This document shows, piece after piece, positions 3,868 through 39,274 of a stretch of DNA of 64,000 bases. Below the pieces are notes generated by a model. That model saw only the letters and a list, made by a program, of their open reading frames with translations, made no database searches and was not told where the DNA came from. A program made the translations under genes and the position numbers. The number at the start of each line of letters is the position of its first letter. The first letter of the stretch is position 1. Origin of the DNA: Silanimonas sp. (GTDB taxonomy: Bacteria; Pseudomonadota; Gammaproteobacteria; Xanthomonadales; Xanthomonadaceae); assembly GCF_018334015.1 (NCBI RefSeq), contig NZ_JAGXTI010000002.1, one strand, 5' to 3'.

Positions 3868-3872
3868 GCCGC

Positions 3873-4502
3873 TCACGGCGCGCCGCCGTCCACGCCGAGC
3901 GTCCACTCGCTCACCACGATCCGCACCGTGAGCGCATCGCGTTCGGCGAACAGCCGGCGCGGCAGCGGCGGCTCACCCGGCCACCAGTCGCGGTATTCAA
4001 GACGCCAGCCGGCCTGTTGCCAGCCAAGCGGCCGGCCCACGGCATCGAAAGCGATGGCGGCGACCGGCCCGGCACCGCGCATGCCGCGCACCCAGGCCGG
4101 GAACTGCGCCACCGGCAGTGCCCAGCCGGTGGCCTCGAGCAGCAGACGCTCGGCATCGGCGGCCTCGCGCGGACCGCCCTCCAGGCCATCGAGCCGGGCC
4201 CAGCCCGGCCGACCGGCCAGCCGCAGGCTGCGGCCGGTGACCGGCGCCTGCAGTTGGATGTCGAAGGCCTCGCCACGCTGCCGCCAGTCGATCTGCACGG
4301 TGGCGGATTCGCGACCGTCGGCGAAGGCCGCGCGACCGCGCAGCCGCCAGTCGGGCTGGGCGGCGAGTTCCGCCTCGCGCGCCGCCTGGGTGGCCCAGAA
4401 CACCGGATCCAGCCCGGCACCGGCGGCCGGTGCCAAGGGCCGATGGCTGGCGCAGGCCGCCAGCAGCAGCACCGGCAACAGGAGGGGCAGCAGGCGGCTC
4501 AT
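3873..4502 (-). CDS. lolB: Outer-membrane lipoprotein LolB
   Basis: MSRLLPLLLPVLLLAAC is a signal peptide plus lipobox. About 209 aa. Conserved position between ispE and the TPR gene. ATG at 4500-4502 inside a much longer shadow ORF. Confidence 0.8.
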   Translation of the reverse strand: MSRLLPLLLPVLLLAACASHRPLAPAAGAGLDPVFWATQAAREAELAAQPDWRLRGRAAFADGRESATVQIDWRQRGEAFDIQLQAPVTGRSLRLAGRPGWARLDGLEGGPREAADAERLLLEATGWALPVAQFPAWVRGMRGAGPVAAIAFDAVGRPLGWQQAGWRLEYRDWWPGEPPLPRRLFAERDALTVRIVVSEWTLGVDGGAP

Positions 4503-6073
4503 CGGCCGTAGCGTCGCACGGTGTCGGCCAGCACCGGATCGCCAGGATCGAGCGCGCGACCGCGCTGCCAGGCGCGCAAGGCGGCGTCGCGGTCGCCAAG
4601 CAGCCAGAGCGCCTCGCCCCAGATCGCCGCCGTGGGTGCGCCCGGCTCCTCGATCCAGGCCCGGGCCAGCACCGCCTCGGCTTCGCGCGGTCGGCGCTCG
4701 GCCAGCAGCAAGGCGCCGAGGGCACGCAGGGCCGGCGCGTGGCGGGGGTCGCGGGCGAGGATGCCGCGCAGTTCGGCCTCGGCCTCGGCGCTGCGGCCGG
4801 CGGCTCGGGCCAGCCGGGCGCGGGCGACACGCAGGCCGGGATCGTCCTCCAGCACCGCGAGGCCGCGGCCGAGCACGGCGGCCGCGGCGGCGCGGTCGCC
4901 CCGGGCCTCGGCCTGGTCGGCTTCGGCCAGGAAGGCATCGCGGCGCAGGGCGCCGTCGGCCTGCTCGTCGGTCTGCAGGGCAATCAAGACCGCGCGGGCC
5001 TCCTCGCCACGCCCCTGCCGGCCGAGCACGGCACCGAGCCGCAGCCGCGCCCGCTGCCCGGCCTCGCCACGATCGACCCGCCGGTACCAGCGTTCGGCCG
5101 CCGGCCAGTCCTGCCGGCGCTCGGCGATCTCGCCGGCCAGCAGGGCAAGCGCCGGCTGTTGCGGGTCGGCCAGGGCGGCGGCCTCGACCTCCAGCCCCAG
5201 CTCGCCCAGCGCATCGAGTCGGCCGGCCCGCGTCAACCAGCCCGCGCGCAGGCTGAGGCTCTGGATGTCCTGCGGCCCATCGGCCAAGGCCTGTGCCGCG
5301 CCCTGCGGATCGCCCAGCACGGCCAGCGCCTCGGCGGCGATCCGCCGCTGCCCGGTGGCCAGACCATCGCGGGCCAGCACCCGCCGGATTTCGGCGCGTG
5401 CGGCATCGCGCTGGCCGGCCCGGGCCAGCCGCTCGGCGCGCAGCAGGCCGGCACGCGGGTCGTCGGGGAAACGCCGCACCAGGGCATCGATCCACTGCCC
5501 GGCCAGATGGGCATCGCCCAGGCCCTGCGCCGCGCCGGCCAGGGCCAGCCAGTCTTCGATCCGCGCCACCGCCGGCTCGGGCAGCAGCAGGGCACGCAGG
5601 GCGGCGCGGGCCATCACCCCGCGGTCGGGGTAGGGCCGGGTCAGGGCCGAAGCCACCCGGCGCGCGCCCTCGGGCTGCGCCAGCAAGCGCCGGGCGGTGA
5701 GCACGGCGGCCTCCAGCTCGCCCTGCACCAGATGGAAGCGCAGGGCCAGCGCATCGCGGACCGGTGATTCCGGCTCCAAGGCGGTCCAGCGCGCGAGCGC
5801 GGCCTCGGCCCGCCGATGGTCGTCGGCCTCGATGGCCGCGAGCAGGGCCAGGGCGGCCAGGCCACGATCATCGGCCGCCTGCGCCGCCGCCAACTGCCAA
5901 GCCGCCGCCACCTCGCGATCGCCGGTCTGGCGGGCGAATTCGGCGGCCAGCAGCGCGGTCAGGGCGTCCGGCGTCGCGCTGGCCGCGGCGGCAGGCGTCG
6001 ATCCGGCGCTGGGCGGGATGGCAAGGAGCAGGACCGCCAGCACGGGCGCCAGGCTCCGGGAACGGCGATTCAT
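4499..6073 (-). CDS. Tetratricopeptide-repeat protein with signal peptide
   Basis: MNRRSRSLAPVLAVLLLAIPPSAG signal sequence followed by an Ala/Leu/Arg-rich repetitive TPR-like sequence. TCAT overlap with the lolB start. Divergent from hemA, as in Pseudomonas and Xanthomonas. Confidence 0.7.
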   Translation of the reverse strand: MNRRSRSLAPVLAVLLLAIPPSAGSTPAAAASATPDALTALLAAEFARQTGDREVAAAWQLAAAQAADDRGLAALALLAAIEADDHRRAEAALARWTALEPESPVRDALALRFHLVQGELEAAVLTARRLLAQPEGARRVASALTRPYPDRGVMARAALRALLLPEPAVARIEDWLALAGAAQGLGDAHLAGQWIDALVRRFPDDPRAGLLRAERLARAGQRDAARAEIRRVLARDGLATGQRRIAAEALAVLGDPQGAAQALADGPQDIQSLSLRAGWLTRAGRLDALGELGLEVEAAALADPQQPALALLAGEIAERRQDWPAAERWYRRVDRGEAGQRARLRLGAVLGRQGRGEEARAVLIALQTDEQADGALRRDAFLAEADQAEARGDRAAAAAVLGRGLAVLEDDPGLRVARARLARAAGRSAEAEAELRGILARDPRHAPALRALGALLLAERRPREAEAVLARAWIEEPGAPTAAIWGEALWLLGDRDAALRAWQRGRALDPGDPVLADTVRRYGR

Positions 6074-6130
6074 CGGCACTCCTAAGGCAGGCCGCTAGAA
6101 TAGCCTTCGCACCGCCGCAGCGCGCCCGCC

Positions 6131-25341: not shown

Positions 25342-25832
25342 CGCCCCCCCACGCGTTCGCGATGGCGCAGGCGCAAGGCGTCGAGCAGCAGGAACACCCA
25401 GGGCCAGAGCAGGGTGCCGAGCAGTGGCGCCAGCAGCACGCCGAGCGGCGGCAGACCCGCCCCGCCGATGCCGCGCAGAACCAGCATCAACACCAGATCG
25501 TTGAGCAGCATCAGGCCCACCGCCGCGGCCTGCTGCCAAGCCGGGAAGAAGCGCAGTTGCGCACGGAAGCGCTGCACCAGAAACACCAGCACCGCCAGCC
25601 GCAGGGCCTGTTCGCCCAGCAGGGTGCCGGTCAGCACGTCGGCCAACAGGCCCAGCAGCCATGCCGCAACGATGCCGCCCGTACCCGGCGCTTCGAGTGC
25701 CCAGTAGACCAGCACCAGGGCCAGCAGGTAGGGCCGCATGTCGTCGAAGAGCGCGGGCAGCGGCAGCACCAGCACGAGCAGGCCGACGATCACGCTGCCA
25801 AGTCGCAGCCAGAGGGGCGTGGGACGGTTCAT
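25338..25832 (-). CDS. mreD: Rod shape-determining protein MreD
   Basis: 164-aa hydrophobic protein directly between mreC and mrdA, with overlapping stops and starts. Confidence 0.85.
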   Translation of the reverse strand: MNRPTPLWLRLGSVIVGLLVLVLPLPALFDDMRPYLLALVLVYWALEAPGTGGIVAAWLLGLLADVLTGTLLGEQALRLAVLVFLVQRFRAQLRFFPAWQQAAAVGLMLLNDLVLMLVLRGIGGAGLPPLGVLLAPLLGTLLWPWVFLLLDALRLRHRERVGGR

Positions 25833-26704
25833 GGACCGTTCTCGGGCGGTCCGACCGGACCTTCCGGGTCGCCGCGCATCACCAGCAGCACCTCGCGGCC
25901 GCGGTCGATCCGGGCCGCCGGCACCGCCTCGGCCTCGAGGAACAGACGACTCTCATCGGGCGCGATGCTCACCACCCGACCCACCGCGAAACCGGCCGGA
26001 AAACGCCCGCCGATGCCCGAGGTCACCAGCACATCATCGATCTGGACATCGGCCGAACGCGGGATGTTGGGCACCCGCAGGGCATCGCTGCGGCCGGTGC
26101 CGACCGCCACCAGACGCAGGCCGGTGCGCACCACCTGCACCGGCACAGCGTGGTTGGCGTCGGTGAGCAGCAAGGCGGTAGCGCCCCGCCCGGAGACCTC
26201 GATGACTTGGCCCAGCATACCGCCGGCATCGATCATCGCCTGGCCAACCTCGACGCCCTCGGCGCTGCCGAGATCGAGCCGCACCCGCTGCCGCCAGGGA
26301 TCAAGATCGACCTCGACGATGCCGGCCATCCGCACAGCAAGGCGGTAGCCGGCCTTGCCGCCGAGCAGTTCGCGCAGCCGGGCGTTCTCCTGGGCCACCG
26401 CCTCCAAGCGGGCGATCTGGGCATCGCGCAATTGCAGCTCGCGGCGCAGGGCGATGTTCTCGCCGGCCAGCCGTTCCTGCCGCGACAGATGGGTCTCGCC
26501 CCAGCCCCACACCCGCATCGGCAGGGCGGCGAGCTGCCAGATCGGCTCGACCGCGGTGGTCAGCGTGGCGCGGACGCGGGGCGAGAGCTCGCCACGGTGA
26601 TCGGCCACCATCAGCACCACCGAGAGCGCGATGCAGGCCAGCAGGGGCAGCGAGCCGGCAGCCGCTTCCGAGAGTTTCGGTGCTGGCGCGCCGGACTGGA
26701 TCAC
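25829..26704 (-). CDS. mreC: Rod shape-determining protein MreC
   Basis: N-terminal TM helix, coiled-coil (LRRELQLRDAQIARLEA), then beta-barrel domains. GTG start. Located downstream of mreB. Confidence 0.88.
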   Translation of the reverse strand: MIQSGAPAPKLSEAAAGSLPLLACIALSVVLMVADHRGELSPRVRATLTTAVEPIWQLAALPMRVWGWGETHLSRQERLAGENIALRRELQLRDAQIARLEAVAQENARLRELLGGKAGYRLAVRMAGIVEVDLDPWRQRVRLDLGSAEGVEVGQAMIDAGGMLGQVIEVSGRGATALLLTDANHAVPVQVVRTGLRLVAVGTGRSDALRVPNIPRSADVQIDDVLVTSGIGGRFPAGFAVGRVVSIAPDESRLFLEAEAVPAARIDRGREVLLVMRGDPEGPVGPPENGP

Positions 26705-26737
26705 GGGCGGGGCGGGAACGGACCGCGACGGGGCGGG

Positions 26738-27820
<1,083 letters not shown>

Positions 27821-27935
27821 TCAAAGAGTAGCAACCGGGGGTGCCTGCCCACAAGGAAAAAGCCCGTTAAACCGGCCACTTCCGGTATTCTGTGCGGCCT
27901 TTCCGCCCCCGAATCCGCCCGAGGACCCGACCCGA

Positions 27936-28871
27936 ATGAGTGCTGCCCTGATCTGCGGCTCGCTGGCCTACGACACCATCATGGTGTTCCCCGACCAGTT
28001 CAAGAACCACATCCTGCCGGACAAGGTGCACATCCTGAACGTGTCCTTCCTGGTGCCGCGGATGCGTCGCGAGTTCGGCGGCTGCGCCGGCAACATCGCC
28101 TACAACCTGCACCTTTTGGGCGGCAAACCGCTGCCGATGGCCACCGTCGGCGAGGATTTCGGCCCCTATCGGGCGCATTTCGAGGCCCTCGGCATCCCGC
28201 TCGACCACGTCAAGGAAATCGCCGGGCTCTTCACCGCGCAGGCCTTCATCACCACCGACCTCGACGACAACCAGATCACCGCCTTCCACCCCGGCGCGAT
28301 GATGCGCAGCTTCGAGAACCACGTCCGCGAGGTGCCGGGGGTCAGCTTCGGCATCGTCGGCCCGGACGGCTACGAGGCCATGCTGCAGAACTGCGCCGAG
28401 TTCGCCGAATGCGGCATCCCCTTCATCTTCGACCCCGGCCAGGCCATGCCGCTTTACAACGGCGAGGAACTGCGGCGGATGATCGACCAAGCCACTTACG
28501 TCACGGTCAACGACTACGAGTCGAGCCTGCTGCAGGAGCGCACCGGCTGGTCGGCCGAGGTGATCGCCAGCAAGGTCAAAGCCTACTTCATCACCCGCGG
28601 CCCGAAGGGTTCCGAGGTGCACACGCCGGAGGGCATGGTCCACATCCCTTCGGCCACCGCCATGCGTGTGGTCGACCCGACCGGCTGTGGCGACGCCTAC
28701 CGCGCCGGCCTGATCTTCGGCTTCATGAATGATCTCGACCTCGCCACCACCGGCCGCATCGCCAGCCTGATGGGCGCGCTCAAGATCGAGCATCTGGGTC
28801 CGCAGAACCAGCGCTTCGACTACGCCGATTTCGCTGAGCAGTTCCGCCAGCAGTTCGGGTACGCGCTCTAA
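27936..28871 (+). CDS. PfkB-family carbohydrate/nucleoside kinase
   Basis: GGCAGNIAYNL and DPTGCGDAYRAG (PfkB signature 2). Its substrate cannot be determined from sequence. ATG at 27936. Confidence 0.8.
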   Translation: MSAALICGSLAYDTIMVFPDQFKNHILPDKVHILNVSFLVPRMRREFGGCAGNIAYNLHLLGGKPLPMATVGEDFGPYRAHFEALGIPLDHVKEIAGLFTAQAFITTDLDDNQITAFHPGAMMRSFENHVREVPGVSFGIVGPDGYEAMLQNCAEFAECGIPFIFDPGQAMPLYNGEELRRMIDQATYVTVNDYESSLLQERTGWSAEVIASKVKAYFITRGPKGSEVHTPEGMVHIPSATAMRVVDPTGCGDAYRAGLIFGFMNDLDLATTGRIASLMGALKIEHLGPQNQRFDYADFAEQFRQQFGYAL

Positions 28872-28926
28872 GCCGGGCGACAGAGGCCCCTGCCCGGCGC
28901 GCGTCGAGCCCCTCCGGCGCGGCGGC

Positions 28927-29682
28927 TCAGTGGCCGAGCAAGGCGCGCTCCTCCGCCGCCAGCAGCCGCCACGCGCCTGCCGCCAGTCCGAGCGCATCAA
29001 GGCTCAGGCCGCCGATCGCCTCGCGGTGCAGGGTGAGCACCGCGTTGCCGGTGGCAGCGAACATCCGCCGCACCTGGTGGTAGCGGCCCTCGTGCAGAGT
29101 GAGGCGGGCCTCGCGCGGGCCCAGCACCTCAAGCACGGCAGGCAGCAAGGGCTTGGTCTCGCCCTCGAGCAGCAGGCTGCCGGCAGCGAACAGTTCGGCC
29201 TCGTTGCCGCGCAGGTCTTCGGCAAGCGTGGCGCGATAGACCTTCGGCTGGTGGTGCTTCGGGCTGGTCAGCCGGTGCAGCAGCTGGCCGTCGTCGGTGA
29301 ACAGCAGCAGGCCCGAGCTGTCCTTGTCGAGCCGCCCCACCGGCGAGACGATCGGCTCGCGCGCCTTCCAGCGCGCGGGCAGCAGGTCGTAGACCACGCG
29401 ACCGGGGTCCTTGGTCGAGCAGGTCACGCCGATGGGCTTGTGCATGGCCACCAGCAGGCCCTGCGCCGGATCGAGCGGCAGGCCATCGACGCGCAGCGCC
29501 GCATGCGGCAGCCGGTGGCCGCCGCGCACGGGTGTGCCCTCGCCCACTTCATCATCGACGTAGAGCGCCTCGCCCCCGGCATCGGTGACGCGGCCTTCGG
29601 CGAGCAGCGCCTCGACCTCGCGGCGCGTGCCGTAGCCGAGCGATTGCAGGTATTGGCGGAGCTTGACCGGTTTGGCCGCCAT
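28927..29682 (-). CDS. rsuA: rRNA pseudouridine synthase, RsuA family
   Basis: N-terminal S4-like segment (KLRQYLQSLGYGTRREVEALLAEGRV) and the catalytic motif GRLDKDSSGLLL. Assignment to RsuA rather than RluB/E is tentative. Confidence 0.75.
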   Translation of the reverse strand: MAAKPVKLRQYLQSLGYGTRREVEALLAEGRVTDAGGEALYVDDEVGEGTPVRGGHRLPHAALRVDGLPLDPAQGLLVAMHKPIGVTCSTKDPGRVVYDLLPARWKAREPIVSPVGRLDKDSSGLLLFTDDGQLLHRLTSPKHHQPKVYRATLAEDLRGNEAELFAAGSLLLEGETKPLLPAVLEVLGPREARLTLHEGRYHQVRRMFAATGNAVLTLHREAIGGLSLDALGLAAGAWRLLAAEERALLGH

Positions 29683-29687
29683 GCGCG

Positions 29688-30776
29688 TCAGCCCGGCGCC
29701 TTCGGCGACCACGCCCGGTAGACCTTGAAACCGCCCTGCTCGGCCAAGGCCTCGCCGCGCCCGAACAAGGCGCGCAGCTCGTCCTCGTAGGGCAGGTGGC
29801 GGTTGGCGACCAGCAGCAATGACCCGTCCGCGGTCAGCGCCCTGACCGCGGCGGCGATGAAGGCACGACCCAGCGCCGGCACGCTGCGCACGCCGACATG
29901 GAAGGGCGGGTTGCTAACGATGGCGTCGAAGCGGCCCGGAACCCCGGCGGCGACGTCGTGCCAGTGGTAGGCCACCGGCAGACGCGCACCGTCGAGGTTG
30001 CGCCGGGCAAGATCGATGGCACGGGCCTCGGCTTCGAACAGATCGAGCGCGGTGAGGCCGGGGCAGCGCTCCAGCACCGCCCGCGCCAACAGGCCGCTGC
30101 CGGCGCCGAGATCGGCCACACGACCGCGCAGGACCTTCGGCAGGTGCTCGATCAGCAAGGCCGAACCGGCATCGAGCCGGCCTTCGTTGAACACACCGGG
30201 GCGCGTCCACAGGCCGGTTGCAGCATCGCGGCGTGGCGCATCGGCGGCGAGCCAGCGCTCGGCCAACGCCTGCCGCTCAGGGTCGAGCAGCGCCGGGCGT
30301 GGCACCGTCCAGAACGCGCGGCCGTGCGCCTTGCTGATGACGCCCGCCAGTGGCGAGAGCGCAGCGAGGTCTTTCTCGAAGGACTTGGCGCCTTCGTCGT
30401 TGAGCGCGGCCGCCAGCACGCGGCCGCCCGGTGCGACATCGAGCACCGCCCGCGCCAGCAGGCCACGGCCCTCCTCGCGCGAGCGCGGCGGCAGCACGAT
30501 CACCGCATCGAGTGAGCCTCGCCCATCGTCCGAAGATGGACCGGCCTCGGAGGCAGCCGCAGCCGACGGAGCGCCCCGGACTGGGATGCCTTCGGCGGCG
30601 AGCGCGGAATGCGCCGGCAGGAAGCCCTGCTCGGCCCGCCAACGGATGCCGGCCGGGGTGCCGTAACTCAAGCCCGGCAGGGCACGCAGCACATCGATGC
30701 GTGGCGTGGGCGGCAGCGCTTCGCACAGACGCGGCAGGGCCGCGCGGAGCACGGCAAGCGGGTTGGACTCGGGCAT
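29688..30776 (-). CDS. rsmC: 16S rRNA m2G methyltransferase, RsmC-like
   Basis: Two-domain methyltransferase with DLGAGSGLL (SAM motif I) and SNPPFH (N-methyltransferase motif IV). Confidence 0.7.
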   Translation of the reverse strand: MPESNPLAVLRAALPRLCEALPPTPRIDVLRALPGLSYGTPAGIRWRAEQGFLPAHSALAAEGIPVRGAPSAAAASEAGPSSDDGRGSLDAVIVLPPRSREEGRGLLARAVLDVAPGGRVLAAALNDEGAKSFEKDLAALSPLAGVISKAHGRAFWTVPRPALLDPERQALAERWLAADAPRRDAATGLWTRPGVFNEGRLDAGSALLIEHLPKVLRGRVADLGAGSGLLARAVLERCPGLTALDLFEAEARAIDLARRNLDGARLPVAYHWHDVAAGVPGRFDAIVSNPPFHVGVRSVPALGRAFIAAAVRALTADGSLLLVANRHLPYEDELRALFGRGEALAEQGGFKVYRAWSPKAPG

Positions 30777-30840
30777 ACCGCCAGTGTAAGGGCAGCGCTG
30801 CGCTGAGGCTGCCCGCGCGGGTGTTGGCGTGGATCGCGCC

Positions 30841-31197
30841 TCAGCCTGCCGTCGTGCCGGCCCGCCGAGCAGCGATGAAGGAACGGACCATCAGCACCAG
30901 CAGAGCCACCGACAACGCCAGCATGCCGGCATTGACCCAGAAGGCCAGCGGGCTCATCTGCGCGGCGCGGATCGCCATCGCCGCCGCCGGTGCCAGCGCA
31001 CCGAGCAGGGCCACCACCGCCGCCACATGCATCAGGTGCTTGCGCGCGCCGTTGAAGGCGAGCGCGAGACCGGCCAGCAGGGCCAGCACGAGGCCCAGGT
31101 AAGCCGGCAGCAGCGCGGTACGGGTCGAGGAGATGCCGAAAGCACCGAGCCCGAGGGCGATCAGCAGGGCGGCGAAAATCAGCGTGGTCTTGGGCAT
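30841..31197 (-). CDS. Small integral membrane protein (four predicted TM helices), function unknown
   Basis: 118-aa hydrophobic ORF beginning MPKTTLIFAALLIALGLGAFG. It is the first gene beyond the left end of the R-M island. Confidence 0.6.
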   Translation of the reverse strand: MPKTTLIFAALLIALGLGAFGISSTRTALLPAYLGLVLALLAGLALAFNGARKHLMHVAAVVALLGALAPAAAMAIRAAQMSPLAFWVNAGMLALSVALLVLMVRSFIAARRAGTTAG

Positions 31198-31268
31198 CGG
31201 GATGGCGCTCGGAGAAGTTGGATCATGAGTGTGCCCGGTTTGTCGTCACCGGGGCGTCATCGGCGTCC

Positions 31269-31306
31269 TCACACCCCGATCGGGTTGGCCTTCTCGGCGT
31301 CGATGT
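31269..31306. repeat. Left copy of the 38-bp direct repeat (duplicate of the aceE 3' end)
   Basis: tcacaccccgatcgggttggccttctcggcgtcgatgt is identical to 36590-36627. The flanking bases differ (c versus t on one side, c versus t on the other). Confidence 0.95.
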
Positions 31307-34277
31307 CGCTGAAGTGCCGGAACTCCAGCGTCCCTTGCCAATTCTGATCCAGCAGAAGATCGCACTCGATCGTGATGCCATCGGCGTTCTCCAGCGACAG
31401 CGCACCGACTGGAGCGCGCGGGCCGTCGCTGAACATCCGGGTCAGTCGCTCCAGCAGCGCTTGTTTGTACGCCGTGTCCACCGAACCGCCCAAGTGGGCA
31501 CCTTTGGTCTCCAGCACGACCATGCGGCTGAGCCCGCCCTCGCCCACTTTGCCAAAGATAAAGTCCGGGTAGACCTTGTTGCGCTTCCAGCCCTGCAAGC
31601 CGTATTGCGCCTTCGCCACGTTGCGGTGCCACCACTGCAGCGCAGTACGACTGTCCAGATAGCCGGCGAACGCTGCTTCGAAATCATTGAAGTCGGGGAG
31701 CCGCAAGGCCGGTTCCAGCAGGCTTTTCTCAACCGGGCGCGCATCGGGCCGCTGCAGTGGCGCGGCCGCACCGGAAAGGTCGACCCTCTGCTCGACGGGC
31801 AGTTCGTAGTCGGCCGCATCGGCGCGCAGGCTGAAGGTGGCCCGGCCTGCGGCCACCATCGCATCGAAATGGGCCTGGGCGAGGCGGTCACGCTCCGCTT
31901 CAATGTCGACCCGCAACGCCTCGATCAGCGAAGCCGATGACCGGGCGATATCGGTCTCGGTAACGCCACTCTCCTTGAGGCGGTCCACCACGTCTGTCAC
32001 CCATCGCCAGACCCACCAGGCATTGGGTGCCAGATCGAGCAGCGCCCTGACGATCCGCGCCCTGTCCAACCCGGCCGTCGCGGTGGCTTCGGACGCGGCT
32101 TGGCTCACGCCGCCGCCATGAAGCACGCCAAGATCGACCAAGACGTGATCGCTCCCCGGCGTCTGCGAGGACGGCGCCCACCGGGCGGCCAATCGACGGG
32201 CATCGACGGCGGACCAGTCCAAGCCGGACAGCACGTCGCTCTCGTAGACCAACTCGCGGCGCATCGTGCCCTCGTTCCAGGTCACACGAGGCAGGAACAG
32301 CCGCAAACCCGCGAAGGCCGCGCGTCGCCGCAGGATCAAGGTATGGGCATCTTCTTTCGCTACATCACCGCCCTTCACCTGCGAGCTCAGATCACCCATA
32401 CCCTCGCCTTCCAATGCCTTGCGGATGCGATGGACCACCTCGCCCGTCTGTGCGTCATGGCAATAGACATAGCAACTGTCCAAGGCCTCGTGCCGTGTCT
32501 TCACCGTGCCGGGCTGGCGCAGGATGCGACCGACCAACTGGGTCATCGCCGCCGCATTGCGGCTGCTCGCCAGGGCGCAGAGCACGTAGGCGAACGGGCA
32601 ATCCCAACCCTCCTGCAGCGCCTGCTTGGTGATGATCACCCGCACCTCATTCTGCGGTGACAGCAAGTCGAGGTTCTCCGGCTGCTTGAGCTCGTCTTTC
32701 TCGGAGGTCTTGATGGCGATCTGCCGGGGCTTGAGCCCCAGCTGGAGCAGGTAGGCCTGCGCATCCTCGGCATGGATGAAGCCGGCATCGCGCTGGTCCT
32801 TGCCGGTACGTTCGACCTGCACCAGCAGAATCGGCCGGATGTAGCGGGCCGTCTCGCCCCGCAGCCGCTCGGCCTCGCGCTGAAGTTCGTCCAGCTTGGC
32901 CACCGACGCCGCGATGCAGCTCTGCCAGTCGGTCCAGCGTTTTGCCTCGACGTGGATCGGCAGTTTGATCATCTGTGCGTCGTCGAGATCGGTGCCACGC
33001 ACGTCGACCAGAATGTTCGAACCGTTGCCCTTGGCGGAGGCCACCCGAGGTGTCGCGGAAAGCTCCAGCAGGAACGACGGATTGAACCCGTCCAGCGTCG
33101 AAAGCGCGTTCTCGGTGTAGGCGTGGTGGCCCTCGTCCATCACGATCATCGGGCGCAGCAGTCGCATCACATTGCCCAATGAACTTTTGACGATGCTGCC
33201 CTTCTGGCGCCGGGCCGCTTCCTGCGATTGACCAACAGGCGCATAGACGTCGAGGTTCGGGACCTGCTGAAGCAGTGCCCAGTGTGCCTCGATGTCATCC
33301 TCGCGCGGGAGGAACCCGAGCACATTGCCGCGATCACGGAACAGGCGGAGCGTCTCCTTGCTCACCCGCGCCGCCGAGGCCAGCATCAACACCATCACGC
33401 ACAGGTGCGAGTCGGTATCGAGACGCGTCAATGGCGAGGTCTTCTCGAGGATCTTGACCCGTCCGGCGGCCGCGACGTTGAGGATCTGCCGATACGGATG
33501 ATCCCGGTCGGAAAGCGCCTTCAGCGTCTGCCGGTAGATCGCCTCGTTGGGCACCACCCACAGGGCCAACCCCGTCTGCCTTTTCAGGTAGAGCGAGAAG
33601 ACCCGCGCCACACTCGCCGCGGCCAGCAGGGTCTTGCCACCGCCGGTGGGAATCTTGAAGCAGAGGTTGGGGATGGCGTGGCCGGCACCGTCAAAGCGGC
33701 TCGAATGCGCGGCGCCCGCGTTGGTCCTGGGCAGCTTGTTCCCGCTCCTCAACTCTTCCCAGGCTTTGCGGGGGAAATCCCGGAGTTCGGCCGGAGTATC
33801 GAGATCGGCGACGCGGAGCACCTTCTCGGCGGCATCGGCCTTACCCTTCTGCCGCTGCAAGGCAGCGAGATAGTCATCCAGACGCTCCAGCACCGTCGAC
33901 TGGAAGGGCTTGAGAGAGATGCCACCCATGGCTTCGGCGCTGGCTGCGTAGCGCTTGCGCTGCCAGAACACGCATCGATCGCGTTCGATCCGCTGCCGGA
34001 AACCAGTCTCGATATCGTCCTGCCAGCGCGCCACATCGATCCGGTACAGGATGTCGAGATCGCGAAGTGCGTTCGACAACTGCGCCCACTCCCCGGGCGT
34101 CGCGGACGGGCAGTCGAGCACCAGATCGATGTCGGAATCGTTCCGTTCATCGCCGCGCGCTCGCGAGCCGTAGATCCACGCGACCTCCACGAACGGTGCC
34201 GCATCAAGGAGGGCGATGATCTTCGCCGCACTGGCAGGAGCGATGCCGAAACCCGGTTTGGGCGACACCGTCGACAT
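31269..34277 (-). CDS. res: Type III restriction enzyme Res subunit with an N-terminal MNT nucleotidyltransferase domain fused in-frame
   Basis: Residues about 1-105 are an NTase fold (GSRARGDERNDSDIDLVLD, i.e. GSx10DxD). The rest is an SF2 helicase (PTGGGKT, VMDEGHH, LELSATP, QLVGRILR) followed by a C-terminal PD-(D/E)xK nuclease (YPDF...VVLETKG). There is no stop codon between the domains. A possible internal start (MGGISLKPFQ) lies at 33929. Confidence 0.85.
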   Translation of the reverse strand: MSTVSPKPGFGIAPASAAKIIALLDAAPFVEVAWIYGSRARGDERNDSDIDLVLDCPSATPGEWAQLSNALRDLDILYRIDVARWQDDIETGFRQRIERDRCVFWQRKRYAASAEAMGGISLKPFQSTVLERLDDYLAALQRQKGKADAAEKVLRVADLDTPAELRDFPRKAWEELRSGNKLPRTNAGAAHSSRFDGAGHAIPNLCFKIPTGGGKTLLAAASVARVFSLYLKRQTGLALWVVPNEAIYRQTLKALSDRDHPYRQILNVAAAGRVKILEKTSPLTRLDTDSHLCVMVLMLASAARVSKETLRLFRDRGNVLGFLPREDDIEAHWALLQQVPNLDVYAPVGQSQEAARRQKGSIVKSSLGNVMRLLRPMIVMDEGHHAYTENALSTLDGFNPSFLLELSATPRVASAKGNGSNILVDVRGTDLDDAQMIKLPIHVEAKRWTDWQSCIAASVAKLDELQREAERLRGETARYIRPILLVQVERTGKDQRDAGFIHAEDAQAYLLQLGLKPRQIAIKTSEKDELKQPENLDLLSPQNEVRVIITKQALQEGWDCPFAYVLCALASSRNAAAMTQLVGRILRQPGTVKTRHEALDSCYVYCHDAQTGEVVHRIRKALEGEGMGDLSSQVKGGDVAKEDAHTLILRRRAAFAGLRLFLPRVTWNEGTMRRELVYESDVLSGLDWSAVDARRLAARWAPSSQTPGSDHVLVDLGVLHGGGVSQAASEATATAGLDRARIVRALLDLAPNAWWVWRWVTDVVDRLKESGVTETDIARSSASLIEALRVDIEAERDRLAQAHFDAMVAAGRATFSLRADAADYELPVEQRVDLSGAAAPLQRPDARPVEKSLLEPALRLPDFNDFEAAFAGYLDSRTALQWWHRNVAKAQYGLQGWKRNKVYPDFIFGKVGEGGLSRMVVLETKGAHLGGSVDTAYKQALLERLTRMFSDGPRAPVGALSLENADGITIECDLLLDQNWQGTLEFRHFSDIDAEKANPIGV

Positions 34278-34678
34278 CAGTGCTTCGCCAGCACCTGGGC
34301 CAGCGCATCGAAGGCGGCCACCGCCTCGGCACGAATAAAAGCCGCCACCTCGATGGCTTTCGCGGCGTCGTAGGTGTGGCTGGTTTCGTCGCGATAGTCC
34401 TTGATGCGCTCCCACGCCTGAGCATCGGCAATGTACCGGGCAACGAATGCCGCCTGCAGCACCGGGCGCACCATCTTCGGCGGATTCTCCCCCTGCAGCC
34501 GCAGCAGGTCGTACATCGCCTTCCACGCCAGCTCGAAGGTGAACTCGAAGCGCTGGATCAAGGCATCGCGGACAATGTCGGTCTCGTCGACGGCAAGGGC
34601 CTCATGCAGGCGCTGCAGCGCCTTGACGTACTGCGCGCGATGCAGATCGAAGCGCTCGCGTTGCATGTTCATGCTCAC
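34277..34678 (-). CDS. HEPN-domain protein, HI0074 family (nucleotidyltransferase substrate-binding protein; putative RNase toxin)
   Basis: IQRFEFTFELAWKAMYDLL is typical of HI0074-like proteins. The Rx4H motif RDETSH (residues 96-101) is followed by Tyr103. GTGA overlap with the mod stop, and a 1-nt TGATG overlap with the MNT-res start. Confidence 0.85.
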   Translation of the reverse strand: MSMNMQRERFDLHRAQYVKALQRLHEALAVDETDIVRDALIQRFEFTFELAWKAMYDLLRLQGENPPKMVRPVLQAAFVARYIADAQAWERIKDYRDETSHTYDAAKAIEVAAFIRAEAVAAFDALAQVLAKH

Positions 34679-36588
34679 GCCTCCCGGTACAGGGCGAAGG
34701 GCAGCGGCGCGTAGTCGATGGCATAGTCGCCCAACTGCCGGTTGCTCAGGTACTTGGCTGGCGCGAACACCAGATGGCGCTTGCGCTCGCCACGCGTGGC
34801 GTCGTGCTCCAGACCCCAGTCATGGAAGGACTTCGCCAACGAAAGCGTCAGCGCCGCTTCGGGGCTGGTCAGGAAGGCCAGCACAGGCTCATACACCAGC
34901 CAGACATGGGCATCGCGGGCCTCGCCGAGGTACCACTTCGGCACCTTCTTCGGCGCGGGCGGCAAGGCACCTCCGGTGGCGGTGTGGAACAGCCACTCGC
35001 CCAGCGCCGACCGGGCCGGCAGCGACTCGCCAGACAGCAGTTTGTCGAGATCCAGCGGCTCACCCAGGGTGCAGTAGGTGAAGCCGCCACCCAAACCGTC
35101 CACGCGCTCGGAGATCTTCTTCTCGCCTTCGACGCGCAGCACGCCCTCATCCAGCTTCACACTGATCCTGTCGAAGCGTTTCGTCTTCGCCGTTCCCTGA
35201 TCGACGAGATCGCCCTCGACGAAGCCCTCGCGCGCCTTGATCGCTTCGATCCTGGCGAGCCATTCATCGGCCTTCTTGAACTGCGTGAAGGTGATCTTCT
35301 GCTCCAGCAGGGTCTCCTTCTGCGTGCCCAACCAGGCGTAGCCCTGGATGACGCGACGCACGCGCTCGGCGGTGAGGCGGTCGGCGTAGTCCTCGCCTTC
35401 GACGAGGATGAAACGACGCGAACCGCCGTCGGCGGCGTTGGCCTTGAGCACCGCATGAGCGGTGGTGCCCGAGCCGGCGAAGCTGTCGAGGACAAGGGCG
35501 TCTTCATTCGAAACGATTTCTATCAGTCGCTGAATCAAGGCTACTGGCTTGGGGAAATCGAAAGAATTTGATCCAAGAATCTCAGTGACCGTCCTTCGTG
35601 CCAGATCCATGTTTAGCTCGGCATCAAGCCAAACTGTTTTTGGCTTGGTTGTTGCCTCTTCTCCATCCTCCGCAATCAAGTAGTCCTTACGGAAAACTCG
35701 CCAAGTTCCGTCGGAGGTTTTGCGACCGACCAAAAAAAGAAAATCTTTCCTGATCTTTGGGACGCTCCAAGTCCAGCAAGTAGGCTCACCCCGAGAGTCA
35801 AGCGGCAACGCTTCAGCGACGTGAAAGGCATCCCTCTCGACCGAGACGCTGCCTGTGTCTGGCCGAACATACAGAGGGAAGTAGAGATTTGGACGCGTAC
35901 CCGGATTGAATGCGGAGTTTCGATTCCGGAGCTCAATCAAACGATAGCGACCGCGCCCATCCTGCTCTCGATACTCCGCGACCATTTTCTCAGTCTTCGC
36001 TGCGCCATTAAATGCAGCATGCTGAGCACTCTTCGCGAAAACGAGCACATACTCATGCGTTTTCGCGAAGTGTTTATCTAAGTGACGACCTTTTGGATTA
36101 AGCCTTGCAACAATTCGGCCTAGGTTGTTGTCAGATCCGAAAATCTCGTCGAGCATCATCTCAAGTCGGTGCGACTCGTGATCGTCAATCGTTACGAAGA
36201 TCACACCAGCCTCGGAGAGCAGCTCTCGCAGCAACACCAGCCGCGGCCACATCATGCACAGCCACTTGTCGTGGCGAAGCATGTCCTCGGCGTCCACCGG
36301 GTTGGTGGACAGCCACTCCTTCATGATCGGGCTGTTGACGCCGTCGCTGTAGCACCAGCCCTCGTTGCCGGTGTTGTAGGGCGGGTCGATGAAGACCAGA
36401 TCGACCTTGCCGGCATAGCGCGGCAGCAGGCTCTTCAGGGCGTGCAGGTTGTCGCCGTGGATCACCAGGTTGCCGCCAAGATCGGGGGCACCCACGCTTT
36501 TTTCCGCATGCGTAACCAGCGGCCGGAACGGTACCGTCAGATGATGGTTGTAGACGTATTCCTTGCCCTTGAAGACGATTTCCGGCAT
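34675..36588 (-). CDS. mod: Type III R-M DNA methyltransferase Mod subunit (beta-class N6-adenine methyltransferase)
   Basis: VFIDPPYNTGN (motif IV) lies N-terminal to DSFAGSGTTAHAV (motif I), with a variable central region between them. ATG at 36586-36588, 1 nt after the aceE stop. Confidence 0.88.
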   Translation of the reverse strand: MPEIVFKGKEYVYNHHLTVPFRPLVTHAEKSVGAPDLGGNLVIHGDNLHALKSLLPRYAGKVDLVFIDPPYNTGNEGWCYSDGVNSPIMKEWLSTNPVDAEDMLRHDKWLCMMWPRLVLLRELLSEAGVIFVTIDDHESHRLEMMLDEIFGSDNNLGRIVARLNPKGRHLDKHFAKTHEYVLVFAKSAQHAAFNGAAKTEKMVAEYREQDGRGRYRLIELRNRNSAFNPGTRPNLYFPLYVRPDTGSVSVERDAFHVAEALPLDSRGEPTCWTWSVPKIRKDFLFLVGRKTSDGTWRVFRKDYLIAEDGEEATTKPKTVWLDAELNMDLARRTVTEILGSNSFDFPKPVALIQRLIEIVSNEDALVLDSFAGSGTTAHAVLKANAADGGSRRFILVEGEDYADRLTAERVRRVIQGYAWLGTQKETLLEQKITFTQFKKADEWLARIEAIKAREGFVEGDLVDQGTAKTKRFDRISVKLDEGVLRVEGEKKISERVDGLGGGFTYCTLGEPLDLDKLLSGESLPARSALGEWLFHTATGGALPPAPKKVPKWYLGEARDAHVWLVYEPVLAFLTSPEAALTLSLAKSFHDWGLEHDATRGERKRHLVFAPAKYLSNRQLGDYAIDYAPLPFALYREA

Positions 36589-36589
36589 T

Positions 36590-36627
36590 TCACACCCCGA
36601 TCGGGTTGGCCTTCTCGGCGTCGATGT
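36590..36627. repeat. Right copy of the 38-bp direct repeat (the authentic aceE 3' end)
   Basis: Identical to 31269-31306. Encodes the aceE stop codon plus the last 11 codons (IDAEKANPIGV). Confidence 0.95.
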
Positions 36628-39274
36628 TGAACACCTTGATGGCGCGGGCCACATCCTTCGCGTTCATCCTGCCCTCGGCCGCGAGCGCGGCGACCGCGGC
36701 GTGCGCGATGTAGTAGCGGTCGACCTCGAAGTGGCGGCGCAGGTTCGCACGGGTGTCCGAGCGGCCGAAGCCATCGGTGCCGAGCACGGTGTACTTCATC
36801 GGCACGAAGGCGCGGATCTGGTCGGCAAACTGGCGCACGTAGTCGGTCGCGGCGATCGCCGGCCCTTGGCGGCCTTCCAGCAGCTCGGTCACATAGGCCT
36901 TGCGCGGCGTCTTCGCTTCCGGGTGCAGGCGGTTCCAACGCTCGGCGTCGAAGCCGTCGCGGCGCAGCTCGGTGAAGCTCGGGCAGCTCCAGATATCGGA
37001 GGACACGCCGAACTCCTTGTCGAGCAGCTCGGCGGCGAAGATCGCCTCGCGCAGGATCGTGCCCGAGCCCAACAGCTGCACACGCAGCTCGCCCTTCTTC
37101 GGCTTGCCGGCGTCCTTGAGCAGGTACATGCCCTTGATGATCCCCTCGGCTGCACCCTCCGGCATCTCCGGGTGGGCGTAGTTCTCGTTCATCAGGGTCA
37201 GGTAGTAATACTCGTCCACCTGCTCGGTCATCATCCGCTGCATGCCGTGCTGCAGGATCACCGCGACCTCGTAGGCGAAGGTCGGATCAAAGGGGCGGCA
37301 GTTCGGGATGTTGCCGGCCAGCAGGTGCGAGTGGCCGTCCTCGTGCTGGAGCCCTTCACCGTTGAGCGTGGTGCGGCCGGCGGTGGCACCCAGCAGGAAG
37401 CCGCGGGCGCGCATGTCGGCGGCCTGCCAGGCCGAATCACCGATGCGCTGGAAGCCGAACATCGAATAGAAGATGTAGAACGGCAGCATCGGCACGTTGT
37501 TCGTGCTGTAGCTGGTGGCTGCCGCCATCCAGCTGGCGAAGCTGCCGGCTTCGTTGATGCCTTCCTGCAGCACCTGGCCGGCCGCGTCCTCGCGGTAGAA
37601 CATCAGCTGGTCGGCATCGACCGGCTTGTATTTCTGGCCGTGCGGCGAATAGATGCCGATCTGCCGGAACAGACCCTCCATGCCGAAGGTGCGCGCCTCG
37701 TCGCAGATGATCGGCACCGTGCGCGGGCCGATCGCCTTGTCGCGCAGGATCACGTTCAGTGCCTGCACGAAGGCCATCGTGGTGCTGATCTCGCGCTCGC
37801 CGCTGCTCTTCAGCAGGCGGTCGAAGACCTCGAGCGCCGGCGTCGGCAGCGATTCGCTGGCCTTGATGCGGCGCTGCGGTAATGGGCCGCCGAGTGCTTC
37901 GCGGCGGGCTTTCAGGTACTGCACTTCCGGCGCGTCGGGACCGGGGTGGTAGAACGGCACCTCGGGCAGTTGCTCGTCGCTCACCGGGATGTTGAAGCGG
38001 TCGCGGAACGCCTTCACCGCCGCGTCGTCGAGCTTCTTCTGCTGGTGGGTGATGTTGATCGACTCGCCGGCCTTGCCCATGCCGTAGCCTTTCACCGTCT
38101 TGGCGAGGATCACGGTGGGCTGGCCCTTGTGCGCGCTGGCGGCGGCATAGGCGGCGTACACCTTGTGCGGGTCGTGGCCGCCGCGGTTGAGGCGCCAGAT
38201 GTCCTCGTCGGACAGCGAGGCGACCATCTGCTTGGTCTCCTCGTACTTGCCGAAGAAATGCTCGCGCGTGTACGCGCCGCCGAAGGCCTTGCAGTTCTGG
38301 TACTCGCCGTCGACGGTTTCCATCATCAGCTTCTTCAGCACGCCGTTGCTGTCCTTGGCCAGCAGCGGGTCCCAGTAACTGCCCCAGACCACCTTCAGCG
38401 CATTCCAGCCGGCGCCACGGAACTGGCCTTCCAGCTCCTGAATGATCTTGCCGTTGCCGCGCACCGGGCCATCCAACCGCTGCAGGTTGCAGTTGATGAC
38501 GAAGATGAGGTTGTCGAGGCCCTCGCGGCCGGCCAGCGAGATGGCACCGAGGCTCTCGGGCTCGTCGCATTCGCCGTCGCCGAGGAAGCACCAGACCTTG
38601 CGGTCGCTGACCGGCATCAGGCCACGGGCTTCGAGGTACTTCCAGAAGCGCGCTTGGTAGATCGCCGCGATGGGCCCCAGACCCATCGACACCGTGGGCG
38701 TCTGCCAGAAGTCCGGCATCAGCCACGGGTGGGGGTAGCTGGAAATGCCTTTGCCGTCGACCTCCATGCGGAAGTGGTCGAGCTGCTGCTCGGTCAACCG
38801 GCCTTCCAGGAAGGCGCGGGCGTAGACGCCCGGCGAGCTGTGCCCCTGGATGAACAGCAGGTCGCCGGGATGCTGGTCGCTGGGCGCGCGCCAGAAGTGG
38901 TTGAAGCCGACGTCGTACAGCGTGGCCGCCGACGCGAAGCTGGCGATATGGCCGCCGAGCTCTCCGGGCTTGCGGTTGGCGCGCACCACCATCGCCAGCG
39001 CGTTCCAGCGGATCAGCGAACGCAGCCGCCACTCCATCTGCGCATCGCCCGGGCTCTTGGCTTCGAGGTGCGTCGGGATGGTGTTGACGTATTCGGTGGT
39101 CGGCGCGAAGGGCAGGTGGGCGCCGGCGCGGCGGGTGAGTTCGACCATCCGCTCGAGCAGGTGGTGGGCACGCTCCGGACCGTCGGCATCGATGACCGCT
39201 TTCAGCGACTCCAGCCACTCCCGGGTCTCGGTGGGGTCGAGGTCGTTCGCCAGGATCTCCTGCAGCCAGTTCAT
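36590..39274 (-). CDS. aceE: Pyruvate dehydrogenase E1 component (homodimeric type)
   Basis: 894 aa starting MNWLQEILANDLDPTETREWLESL. Contains the ThDP motif GDGECDEPES. Full-length similarity to AceE by eye. Confidence 0.95.
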   Translation of the reverse strand: MNWLQEILANDLDPTETREWLESLKAVIDADGPERAHHLLERMVELTRRAGAHLPFAPTTEYVNTIPTHLEAKSPGDAQMEWRLRSLIRWNALAMVVRANRKPGELGGHIASFASAATLYDVGFNHFWRAPSDQHPGDLLFIQGHSSPGVYARAFLEGRLTEQQLDHFRMEVDGKGISSYPHPWLMPDFWQTPTVSMGLGPIAAIYQARFWKYLEARGLMPVSDRKVWCFLGDGECDEPESLGAISLAGREGLDNLIFVINCNLQRLDGPVRGNGKIIQELEGQFRGAGWNALKVVWGSYWDPLLAKDSNGVLKKLMMETVDGEYQNCKAFGGAYTREHFFGKYEETKQMVASLSDEDIWRLNRGGHDPHKVYAAYAAASAHKGQPTVILAKTVKGYGMGKAGESINITHQQKKLDDAAVKAFRDRFNIPVSDEQLPEVPFYHPGPDAPEVQYLKARREALGGPLPQRRIKASESLPTPALEVFDRLLKSSGEREISTTMAFVQALNVILRDKAIGPRTVPIICDEARTFGMEGLFRQIGIYSPHGQKYKPVDADQLMFYREDAAGQVLQEGINEAGSFASWMAAATSYSTNNVPMLPFYIFYSMFGFQRIGDSAWQAADMRARGFLLGATAGRTTLNGEGLQHEDGHSHLLAGNIPNCRPFDPTFAYEVAVILQHGMQRMMTEQVDEYYYLTLMNENYAHPEMPEGAAEGIIKGMYLLKDAGKPKKGELRVQLLGSGTILREAIFAAELLDKEFGVSSDIWSCPSFTELRRDGFDAERWNRLHPEAKTPRKAYVTELLEGRQGPAIAATDYVRQFADQIRAFVPMKYTVLGTDGFGRSDTRANLRRHFEVDRYYIAHAAVAALAAEGRMNAKDVARAIKVFNIDAEKANPIGV

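Follow-up and report, generated by a model that had tools for sequence, protein, structure and literature searches.

A minimal nucleotidyltransferase domain fused to the Res subunit in a Type III restriction-modification cassette from Silanimonas sp., with a HEPN gene between mod and res

Known HEPN/MNT pairs and restriction-linked RNases

The idea that HEPN genes found in restriction-modification (R-M) loci serve as a suicide back-up dates from 2012-13 (PMC3506569, PMC3632139, PMC3710099). At least 16 HEPN clades are linked to R-M systems, joined to restriction, helicase or ATPase subunits and never to methylases (PMC3710099), and a companion review described immunity loci as being without recognisable antitoxins (PMC3632139). 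In this work, we analyse a 64,000-nucleotide stretch of Silanimonas sp. DNA (contig NZ_JAGXTI010000002.1; the whole stretch is called the window below), in which a Type III R-M cassette holds a HEPN gene between mod and res, and a minimal nucleotidyltransferase (MNT) domain forms the N-terminus of the Res subunit itself (MNT::Res). This family is a clear exception to the description of immunity loci as devoid of recognisable antitoxins. In the fusions of Anantharaman et al. (2013) it is the HEPN that is joined to restriction endonucleases or helicases, whereas here the toxin is free and the antitoxin domain is fused to Res.

Class I HepT/MntA pairs, a form of type VII toxin-antitoxin (TA) system, are defined by a HEPN protein with an RX4HXY motif (PF01934 or PF08780) and a neighbouring MNT with a GSX10DXD motif (PMC7641770). 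The Silanimonas locus has both motifs, their adjacency and both folds, but not the two separate small proteins with the antitoxin gene first. For both partners the closest solved structures belong to the Legionella pneumophila pair lpg2920/lpg2921 (8xdj, 8xeo, 8xeh), in which an MNT lacking the long α4 helix poly-AMPylates Tyr105 of the HEPN (PMC11586414). Likeness to that pair extends to an RX4HXY motif with an aligned acceptor Tyr, a short MNT without α4, GSX10DXD and overlapping genes; unlike the two free-standing small proteins of L. pneumophila, the MNT here is the N-terminal part of a 1002-aa restriction subunit encoded in an R-M operon. Shewanella oneidensis HepT/MntA and Aphanizomenon flos-aquae HEPN/MNT carry the same motifs, and the predicted logic is also the same, an RNase toxin silenced by oligo-AMPylation of the Tyr beside RX4H (PMC7641770). 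Their HepT belongs to DUF86 (PF01934) and not, as here, to PF08780, and their MntA, a protein of 139 aa whose gene precedes that of the toxin, possesses the α4 helix. In the initial annotation of this DNA the HEPN-first order was noted as the reverse of that of HI0073/HI0074, and the statement that MNT is 'almost always' 5' of HEPN (PMC3710099) bears out that it is unusual. The order is nevertheless less exceptional than it seemed, as the free-standing relatives found for our MNT comprise six HEPN-first pairs (loci L055, L059, L072 and L080-L082) against twelve MNT-first ones; L055 excepted, these HEPN-first solo pairs are no closer to the fused family than the MNT-first solos. The namesake proteins, HI0073/HI0074 of Haemophilus influenzae (1no5, 1jog), match in both folds, and our HEPN passes the TIGR01987 model of HI0074; unlike the genes described here they are a free-standing pair, historically read as a two-subunit nucleotidyltransferase. 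To our knowledge, HI0073/HI0074 are not associated with an R-M system.

Resemblance to PrrC/EcoprrI is by analogy only. There too a HEPN RNase gene is embedded among R-M genes, and the restriction complex is believed to keep PrrC latent for use as a suicide back-up (PMC3632139, PMC3710099). Unlike the HEPN described here, PrrC has an N-terminal ABC-ATPase sensor domain, no MNT and a Type I partner; it is silenced by protein association and triggered by T4 Stp, whereas a tethered modifying enzyme is proposed for our locus. With EcoP15I/EcoPI and the unfused members of the PADLOC family PDLC03653 the locus shares Mod and Res, all helicase and nuclease motifs and the position of mod upstream of res; it departs from classical Type III systems in the extra gene between mod and res and in a Res with an N-terminal extension of ~120 aa. 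No description of an MNT::Res fusion was found by full-text searching of the literature, including the main text of the 2013 HEPN census, and a 2021 survey of Type III diversity reports an extra ATPase 5' of mod and nothing like MNT::Res (PMC8259958).

The components of the cassette

Two readings of the initial annotation, a HEPN gene wedged between mod and res and an MNT continuing in-frame into a complete Res, are upheld by our analysis. The first is confirmed by reading of open reading frames (ORFs), Pfam, TIGR01987 and AlphaFold2 with Foldseek. The second is seen in a single uninterrupted 1002-aa ORF, in which Polbeta is matched in the N-terminal part and REase_III over nearly its full model. 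For the HEPN and nucleotidyltransferase folds alike, hidden Markov models, AlphaFold2 models and Foldseek all agree.

The MNT motif reads G37-S38-RARGDERNDS-D49-I-D51. Residues 19-107 of the fusion match Pfam Polbeta PF18765 (E=5e-12), NTP_transf_2 is reached at 21.7 bits (cutoff 21), and in PADLOC only the candidate models 'PDC-S09' and 'PDC-M05A' are hit. G37, S38, D49 and D51 are invariant in 20/20 diverse members, and D81 is nearly so. In an AlphaFold2 model of the N-terminal 215 residues, built on the family alignment, a compact α/β domain (aa 10-108, predicted local distance difference test (pLDDT) ~90) is followed by a linker (aa 110-116, pLDDT <50) and a long Res helix (aa 124-156). 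The best Foldseek match of this model in the PDB is the L. pneumophila MNT antitoxin 8xeo (template modelling score TMt 0.92, root-mean-square deviation (rmsd) 1.4 Å), and the HEPN-MNT complex 8xeh, HI0073 (1no5) and MntA (6m6u) come next. The MNT is thus predicted to be an autonomous domain on a flexible linker. Since the REase_III match begins at aa 121 and takes in nearly the whole model, the MNT is an N-terminal add-on to a complete restriction subunit. An internal ATG at 33929, suggested in the initial annotation as a possible start for free Res, corresponds to Met116, a position where each of the 19 other members aligned has I, V, L or T, so that a conserved second product is unsupported.

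Residues 121-981 cover positions 2-875 of the 883 in PADLOC REase_III PDLC03653 (E=3e-194), and Pfam ResIII is matched at 1.3e-12. The motifs PTGGGKT, DEGHH, QLVGRILR and a C-terminal PD…ETK can be read; the match to the EcoP15I Res structure 4zcf is weak, with ~20 bits of direct sequence similarity. Mod gives 8.5e-34 with Pfam N6_N4_Mtase and 2.4e-174 with PADLOC MTase_III PDLC03640, and contains FIDPPY and FAGSGTT. Both subunits of a Type III system are therefore in place, with the HEPN gene interrupting the usual direct succession of mod and res.

The HEPN protein, 131-133 aa long with one PF08780 domain, contains IQRFEFTFELAWK and R96-DETS-H101-T-Y103 (numbered from the GTG start). It matches Pfam NTase_sub_bind PF08780 with E=5.7e-26 (91 bits, cutoff 31.8) and TIGR01987 HI0074 with 86 bits (cutoff 55.8). 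Its AlphaFold2 model, also made on the family alignment, has five helices and a mean pLDDT of 96.7, and its best Foldseek match in the PDB is the AMPylated HEPN toxin of L. pneumophila, 8xdj (TM 0.90, rmsd 1.4 Å, 30% identity), ahead of TTHA0048, HI0074 (1jog) and HepT. Y103, R96 and H101 align with Tyr105, R98 and H103 of the L. pneumophila HEPN, and Q42 and E45 with Q44 and E47, the proposed metal-site residues. Among R-M-embedded HEPN homologues R96, E49 and W89 are each found in 51/51 sequences and H101 and Y103 in 50/51; a closer set of 39 HEPN sequences shows no or almost no variation at Q40 and E43, the equivalents of the metal-site residues, and at E47 (all in ATG numbering). PADLOC holds no HEPN model, and its single JetB match to the HEPN is spurious.

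On the minus strand the order is aceE, mod, HEPN and MNT::Res, and the cassette contains only the last three ORFs. The gene for the pyruvate dehydrogenase E1 component, aceE, ends at 36590, and the mod ATG at 36588 opens 1 nt past its stop. Translational coupling of the HEPN gene on both sides, as proposed in the initial annotation, stands towards Res, where the HEPN stop TGA (34279-34277) and the fusion ATG at 34277 have one A in common (TGATG). Towards mod, the overlap of GTG 34678 with the mod stop TGA at 34677-34675 (GTGA) does exist, but ATG 34672, two bases past that stop, is the more likely start: it is preceded by a GGGAGG Shine-Dalgarno sequence 7 nt upstream, it is the one chosen by gene callers (P0271), and HEPN begins 1-2 nt past the mod stop in 4/5 called homologues, the fifth (L093) having a HEPN start that overlaps the mod stop. 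The protein would then count 131 aa instead of the 133 from GTG, and its coupling to mod is tight, though probably not through overlap. Because the three genes are so tightly stacked, the toxin and the Res-borne antitoxin should be co-produced.

A scan of 30700-37300 found nothing resembling a promoter and a single weak terminator-like site within the HEPN gene, fewer than chance would give; such scans are uninformative at 65-70% GC. Rfam and tRNA scans showed nothing close to the locus. A 1085-aa ORF starting at GTG 34526 was rejected, as it overlaps HEPN out of frame, represents GC-rich read-through, and homologues begin at the ATG. Positions 27000-39000 carry many long spurious ORFs on both strands, such as 25661-28732 (1023 aa) and 33228-34373 (antisense to res). 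GC-rich DNA typically has them, and ORF length by itself is no evidence of a gene in this region. The coordinates of the locus are collected in Table 1.

Table 1. Features of the mod-HEPN-MNT::res locus, in positions of the window
Feature	Position	Strand	Basis
mod, Type III DNA methyltransferase, 637 aa	34675..36588	-	Pfam N6_N4_Mtase, PADLOC MTase_III
HEPN gene, HI0074/NTase_sub_bind family	34277..34678 (GTG) or from ATG 34672	-	Pfam, TIGR01987, AlphaFold2, Foldseek
RX4HXY motif of HEPN, R96-D-E-T-S-H101-T-Y103 (GTG numbering)	34370..34393	-	RNase motif and predicted AMPylation tyrosine
MNT::Res fusion ORF, 1002 aa, uninterrupted	31269..34277	-	ORF reading, hidden Markov models, homologues
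MNT domain, aa ~10-108 of the fusion	33954..34250	-	Polbeta PF18765, AlphaFold2, Foldseek
GSX10DXD of MNT, aa 37-51	34125..34169	-	Motif reading, alignment
Linker between MNT and Res core, aa 109-121, predicted disordered, holds Met116	33915..33953	-	pLDDT, alignment starts
Res core, aa 122-1002, SF2 helicase and C-terminal PD…ETK nuclease	31269..33914	-	PADLOC REase_III, ResIII
38-bp direct repeat, upstream copy, last 12 aceE codons and stop (…NIDAEKANPIGV*)	36590..36627	-	
38-bp direct repeat, downstream copy, gives the Res C-terminal tail and stop	31269..31306	-	

Elsewhere in the window, positions 4000-6000 reach a GC content of 78% against ~69% in the remainder. This stretch overlaps a LolB-domain ORF with a long N-terminal extension (3873-5495, minus strand) and a TPR protein ORF (4499-6079, minus strand).

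Recurrence, mobility and decay of the fused cassette

Homologues of the fusion were sought among 5.8 billion proteins, and the 120 best matches (61-99% identity) were considered. Nearly all, 119 of the 120, are ~973-1024 aa long, and in 115 of these a precomputed Polbeta domain stands beside ResIII; the other four full-length proteins list ResIII only, and the three with printed N-termini (P0078, P0080, P0102) keep GS…DxD. P0012 (865 aa, 76% identity) at first looked like an unfused homologue, but its locus, L083, shows an MNT followed by a run of Ns, an assembly-gap artefact. Judging from these sequences, all 120 best homologues are fused, and the fusion is neither an artefact nor a chance GC-rich ORF. 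Loci were surveyed by scanning a single genome from each GTDB species for the pattern, with checks by tblastn and ORF tracing; species counts are lower bounds. At least 51 GTDB species have MNT and Res, in one ORF of ~980-1036 aa wherever the contig is long enough. HEPN lies directly upstream in 49/51 listed species; the exceptions are L026, whose contig begins inside MNT and does not allow assessment, and L035, where HEPN is deleted. In this same set of at least 51 species mod is found upstream of HEPN-MNT::Res wherever the contig extends far enough, and in at least 36/50 loci the stop codon of HEPN and the start codon of Res overlap (as ATGA, as TGATG or by 8 nt). No version with MNT and Res split was seen among the 120 homologues and the at least 51 genomes. 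The database search suggested in the initial annotation thus shows a fusion that recurs widely.

Burkholderiales make up most of the hosts (Rhodoferax, Polaromonas, Hydrogenophaga, Limnohabitans, Rubrivivax, Ideonella, Ramlibacter, Roseateles, Aquabacterium, Methylopumilus, Dechloromonas), and the others are Xanthomonadales relatives (Luteimonas, Silanimonas, Rhodanobacteraceae, Metallibacterium). No fused homologue was found in plasmids (PLSDB), GenBank phages (INPHARED) or IMG/VR. Public names of the proteins are 'DEAD/DEAH box helicase family protein', 'type III restriction enzyme' and 'HI0074 family nucleotidyltransferase substrate-binding subunit', and the HEPN family alone forms ~400 clusters at 90% identity. 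Among environmental Beta- and Gammaproteobacteria the architecture is common, yet it has apparently escaped characterisation, as the initial annotation supposed; no paper was found that contradicts this, frequent as the arrangement is in databases.

Of the best 150 matches in a 50%-identity library, just two represent the fused form, P0121 (full-length, aligned from residue 8) and P0178, an N-terminal fragment. Other full-length relatives among these 150 have at most 49% identity, measure 820-880 aa and align from residue ~120 or later, and the remaining shorter matches are fragments without the N-terminus. The two nearest unfused Res proteins (47-49% identity) are encoded in classical operons with mod abutting res. 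With the fused form reduced to one representative and one fragment, and the nearest unfused Res in plain mod-res operons, the HEPN-MNT pair was captured a single time, between mod and res of an ordinary Type III operon, in the ancestor of one Res clade. In the closest unfused Type III relative (L090/L091, 2533-3126) a gene with the antitoxin-type domain SocA_Panacea lies directly upstream of mod, a further TA-like neighbour for this Res family. The mod-res junction seems to be a slot gathering accessory genes. In Metallibacterium (L097-L100, ~3785-5004) and in L033 (4440-5341) and L041 (4315-5537), two added genes stand between mod and HEPN, for a DUF6978 protein (138 aa) and a DUF1828/DUF1829 protein (268 aa), the second of which overlaps the HEPN start.

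The Silanimonas cassette is bracketed exactly by a perfect 38-bp direct repeat, with the copies 5321 bp apart. The repeat is the 3' end of aceE, and Res takes its last 12 codons and stop from the downstream copy (…DIDAEKANPIGV). The GC content of the cassette is 0.58-0.65 against ~0.70 in the flanks, and no integrase or transposase was found inside its 5321 bp. The unit shows the features of R-M 'insertion with long target duplication' as described by Furuta et al. 2010 (PMC2853133), namely a length below 20 kb, R and M genes and a target-derived repeat of >30 bp, which fits a cassette that inserted at the 3' end of aceE and duplicated a 38-bp target there. The identical insertion and repeat pair are present in L084, with two synonymous changes in the downstream copy, and units of ~5.5 kb are flanked by 33-bp repeats in L050 (3538/9004) and by 19-bp repeats in L012 (3541/9092). 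This suggests that mod-HEPN-MNT::res moves as a unit via the same repeat-generating mechanism; most other loci have no flanking repeat of at least 12 bp.

Some further loci share this neighbourhood. In L086 (a Lysobacteraceae metagenome-assembled genome, 1-10722), a 75%-identical cassette lies in the same surroundings as in the window, that is aceE … cassette, a 118-aa membrane ORF, an rsmC-like methyltransferase and a pseudouridine synthase; it has an additional 284-aa ORF past aceE and no repeat. The cassette of a betaproteobacterial member (L001, 1-7600) is placed ~3.8 kb from aceE. The window and L084 share 99% identity in the aceE flank and just 83-88% in the cassette, which hints at cassette exchange or fast evolution.

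Purifying selection acts on HEPN and MNT, whose dN/dS against L084 (88% identical) is 0.14 and 0.16, respectively; the value for Res is 0.25. In L084 (1229-4193) a transposase of the IS1595 family splits mod, while HEPN and MNT::Res are intact. Type III restriction needs Mod bound to Res (PMC3874152), and the Res of L084, being without Mod, should not be able to restrict. Other loci show stages of decay. L035 lost HEPN and kept mod and MNT::Res; L054 retains a mod remnant and a 130-aa MNT plus a few Res residues, with HEPN absent; L055 has a HEPN (60% identical, motif intact) and an MNT gene ending just past the FWEPR linker motif, without Res and Mod. HEPN without MNT was seen in no locus surveyed. 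Decay is asymmetric, in line with toxin-antitoxin logic.

Possible roles of an antitoxin tied to Res

We give slightly better than an even chance to the reading in which a Type III cassette has captured a class I HEPN/MNT pair, the Res-borne MNT silences the HEPN RNase, and Res acts as its keeper. The MNT would bind HEPN oligomers and use ATP to (poly)AMPylate Tyr103 (Tyr101 in ATG numbering), silencing the RNase. HEPN would become active on escaping modification, when the Res polypeptide is not made or is destroyed, when it or its MNT is blocked, when ATP is low, or when a phosphodiesterase takes AMP off; the model for L. pneumophila has the same routes of activation. Active HEPN would then cut cellular RNA and growth would stop, so that the restriction subunit would double as keeper of a suicide or dormancy RNase, and the cassette would gain a second, RNA-directed line of defence and/or become hard to lose. 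The fusion would tie the antitoxin physically and stoichiometrically to Res and not to Mod, and what it might add is equal dosage, a toxin docked on the restriction complex, or control through the conformation or turnover of Res. As a molecular reading, the putative Res-tethered AMPylating antitoxin is well supported by homology, and the joining of MNT to the restriction subunit fits the observation that HEPN-R-M links never involve methylases (PMC3710099). The conserved catalytic residues, the low dN/dS, the recurrence of the layout, the correlation of HEPN with MNT distances given below and the asymmetric decay also count in favour of a captured HEPN/MNT pair. The wider version, in which any event removing, blocking or overwhelming Res or draining ATP would unleash RNA cleavage, and the cassette would be a self-sufficient mobile element with its own addiction device, is tentative and to our mind doubtful. 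The putative abortive-infection back-up of the initial annotation, which losing or inhibiting Res would release, is plausible by analogy with PrrC.

Several observations weigh against Res as keeper. The MNT scores 33 bits against the 60-bit cutoff of the NCBIfam MntA equivalog NF047752. Distances were compared over 31 complete loci, whose species are phylogenetically non-independent, a flaw common to all matrix pairs; the mean amino-acid distance is 0.56 for HEPN, 0.57 for MNT, 0.36 for the Res core and 0.34 for Mod. HEPN and MNT distances correlate (Mantel r=0.42, p=0.0002; 0.41 as a partial r given Res), while those of HEPN are uncorrelated with Res (r=0.12, p=0.10) and Mod (r=-0.01). This joint evolution of HEPN and MNT, independent of Res and Mod, is what a self-contained passenger module would be expected to show. 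The MNT-only remnants of ~115-130 aa (L054, L055) indicate that the Res body is not needed for neutralisation, and the fusion could be a frozen accident, as re-splitting needs a new res start and persistence need not mean selection. The proposal that antitoxin supply requires intact Res consequently stands for the first ~120 codons and for translation and stability of the polypeptide, and not for the rest: as the MNT is predicted to be autonomous and MNT-only remnants exist, a nonsense, truncated or nuclease-dead Res would not free the toxin, and only loss of res translation, of its 5' end or of the whole polypeptide would do so. Neither of the two triggers named in the initial annotation fares well. 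Phage anti-restriction is disfavoured, since EcoPI, a Type III enzyme, is unaffected by the DNA mimics ArdA and Ocr as well as by ArdB (PMC10149784), and no protein inhibitor directed at Type III systems was found in the literature searched. Loss of the island would not obviously free active toxin either, because AMPylation is covalent and does not decay when the genes go.

The last point also bears on an explanation by addiction only, in which HEPN/MNT is a selfish stabiliser of a mobile Type III unit that may not on its own kill when lost, and restriction is irrelevant to the toxin; an AMPylated toxin would remain off after gene loss unless de-AMPylated. The flanking repeats of 38, 33 and 19 bp (window, L050, L012), the cassette GC below that of the flanks, the retention of HEPN in 49/50 assessable loci and the intact HEPN and MNT::Res of L084 beside its split mod all speak for such a stabiliser. 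Post-segregational killing is known from Type II systems and was not shown by the Type I systems examined, the review concerned reporting no test for Type III (PMC3874152). Addiction would require an antitoxin more labile than the toxin, and turnover of a 1002-aa enzyme would waste Res; moreover, the fused family was not found in PLSDB plasmids, where addiction modules are most useful. We judge this explanation unlikely.

Still less probable is a neutral passenger, a HEPN/MNT module that landed between mod and res, lost the MNT stop and was frozen as a fusion, with TA and R-M functions independent. The faster evolution of HEPN and MNT than of Res and Mod, and the distances of HEPN uncorrelated with either subunit, are what it would predict; so are the MNT as a separate domain on a low-confidence linker, the uptake of DUF6978 and DUF1828/1829 by the same slot in some members, and the close stand-alone HEPN+MNT relative L055. 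TA modules are, however, usually patchy and easily lost, and this one persists in 49 or more species, its catalytic residues intact and its dN/dS at ~0.15-0.2, with no split version among the homologues and genomes compared. That R-M-linked HEPN repeatedly accompanies a restriction or helicase subunit and never a methylase (PMC3710099) also argues for function.

An improbable alternative is an activation-coupled effector, in which HEPN docked via MNT would be switched on by an ATPase-driven change when Res engages unmethylated DNA, RNA cleavage accompanying DNA cleavage. The MNT does adjoin the N-terminal ATPase lobe of Res, ATP hydrolysis is described as a conformational switch of Type III Res (PMC8259958), and a 1:1 co-translation design fits. 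The sequence does not distinguish this from a fail-safe model; the strictly conserved transferase residues and acceptor Tyr favour enzymatic silencing over mere docking, and no precedent was found in the literature searched. Least probable by far is a two-subunit nucleotidyltransferase, in which HEPN would bind the substrate and with MNT nucleotidylate a third target (DNA ends, Res/Mod, a phage protein or a small molecule): it was the original structural reading of HI0073/HI0074 and survives in the family annotation 'nucleotidyltransferase substrate-binding subunit', and Pol-beta nucleotidyltransferases fused to inactive HEPN do act so (kanamycin nucleotidyltransferase, GlnE; PMC3710099), but domesticated HEPN typically lack RX4-6H (PMC3710099), while here R, H, Y and the acidic positions hardly vary, and the solved structures nearest to this pair are those of a proven toxin and of the antitoxin that AMPylates it (PMC11586414).

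The architecture is built from two known kinds of system and is neat and moderately surprising, not a new principle. If the fusion is only a frozen accident, it is a tidy example of a TA module hitch-hiking in a mobile R-M cassette. In either case several hundred database proteins, now labelled just 'DEAD/DEAH box helicase' or 'nucleotidyltransferase substrate-binding subunit', are flagged, and the mod-res junction is highlighted as a slot for accessory defence genes. Coupling of toxins to immunity was proposed more than a decade ago for R-M and CRISPR loci, with the wiring unknown apart from PrrC. In this cassette the wiring can be read from the sequence, with an antitoxin of a proven enzymatic class placed on the restriction subunit and its cognate RNase encoded just upstream, and the old suicide-coupling hypothesis becomes directly testable with few constructs. 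If Res is indeed the keeper of the RNase, this would be the first molecularly explicit wiring of 'immunity-suicide coupling' in an R-M system, with the antitoxin built into the restriction enzyme.

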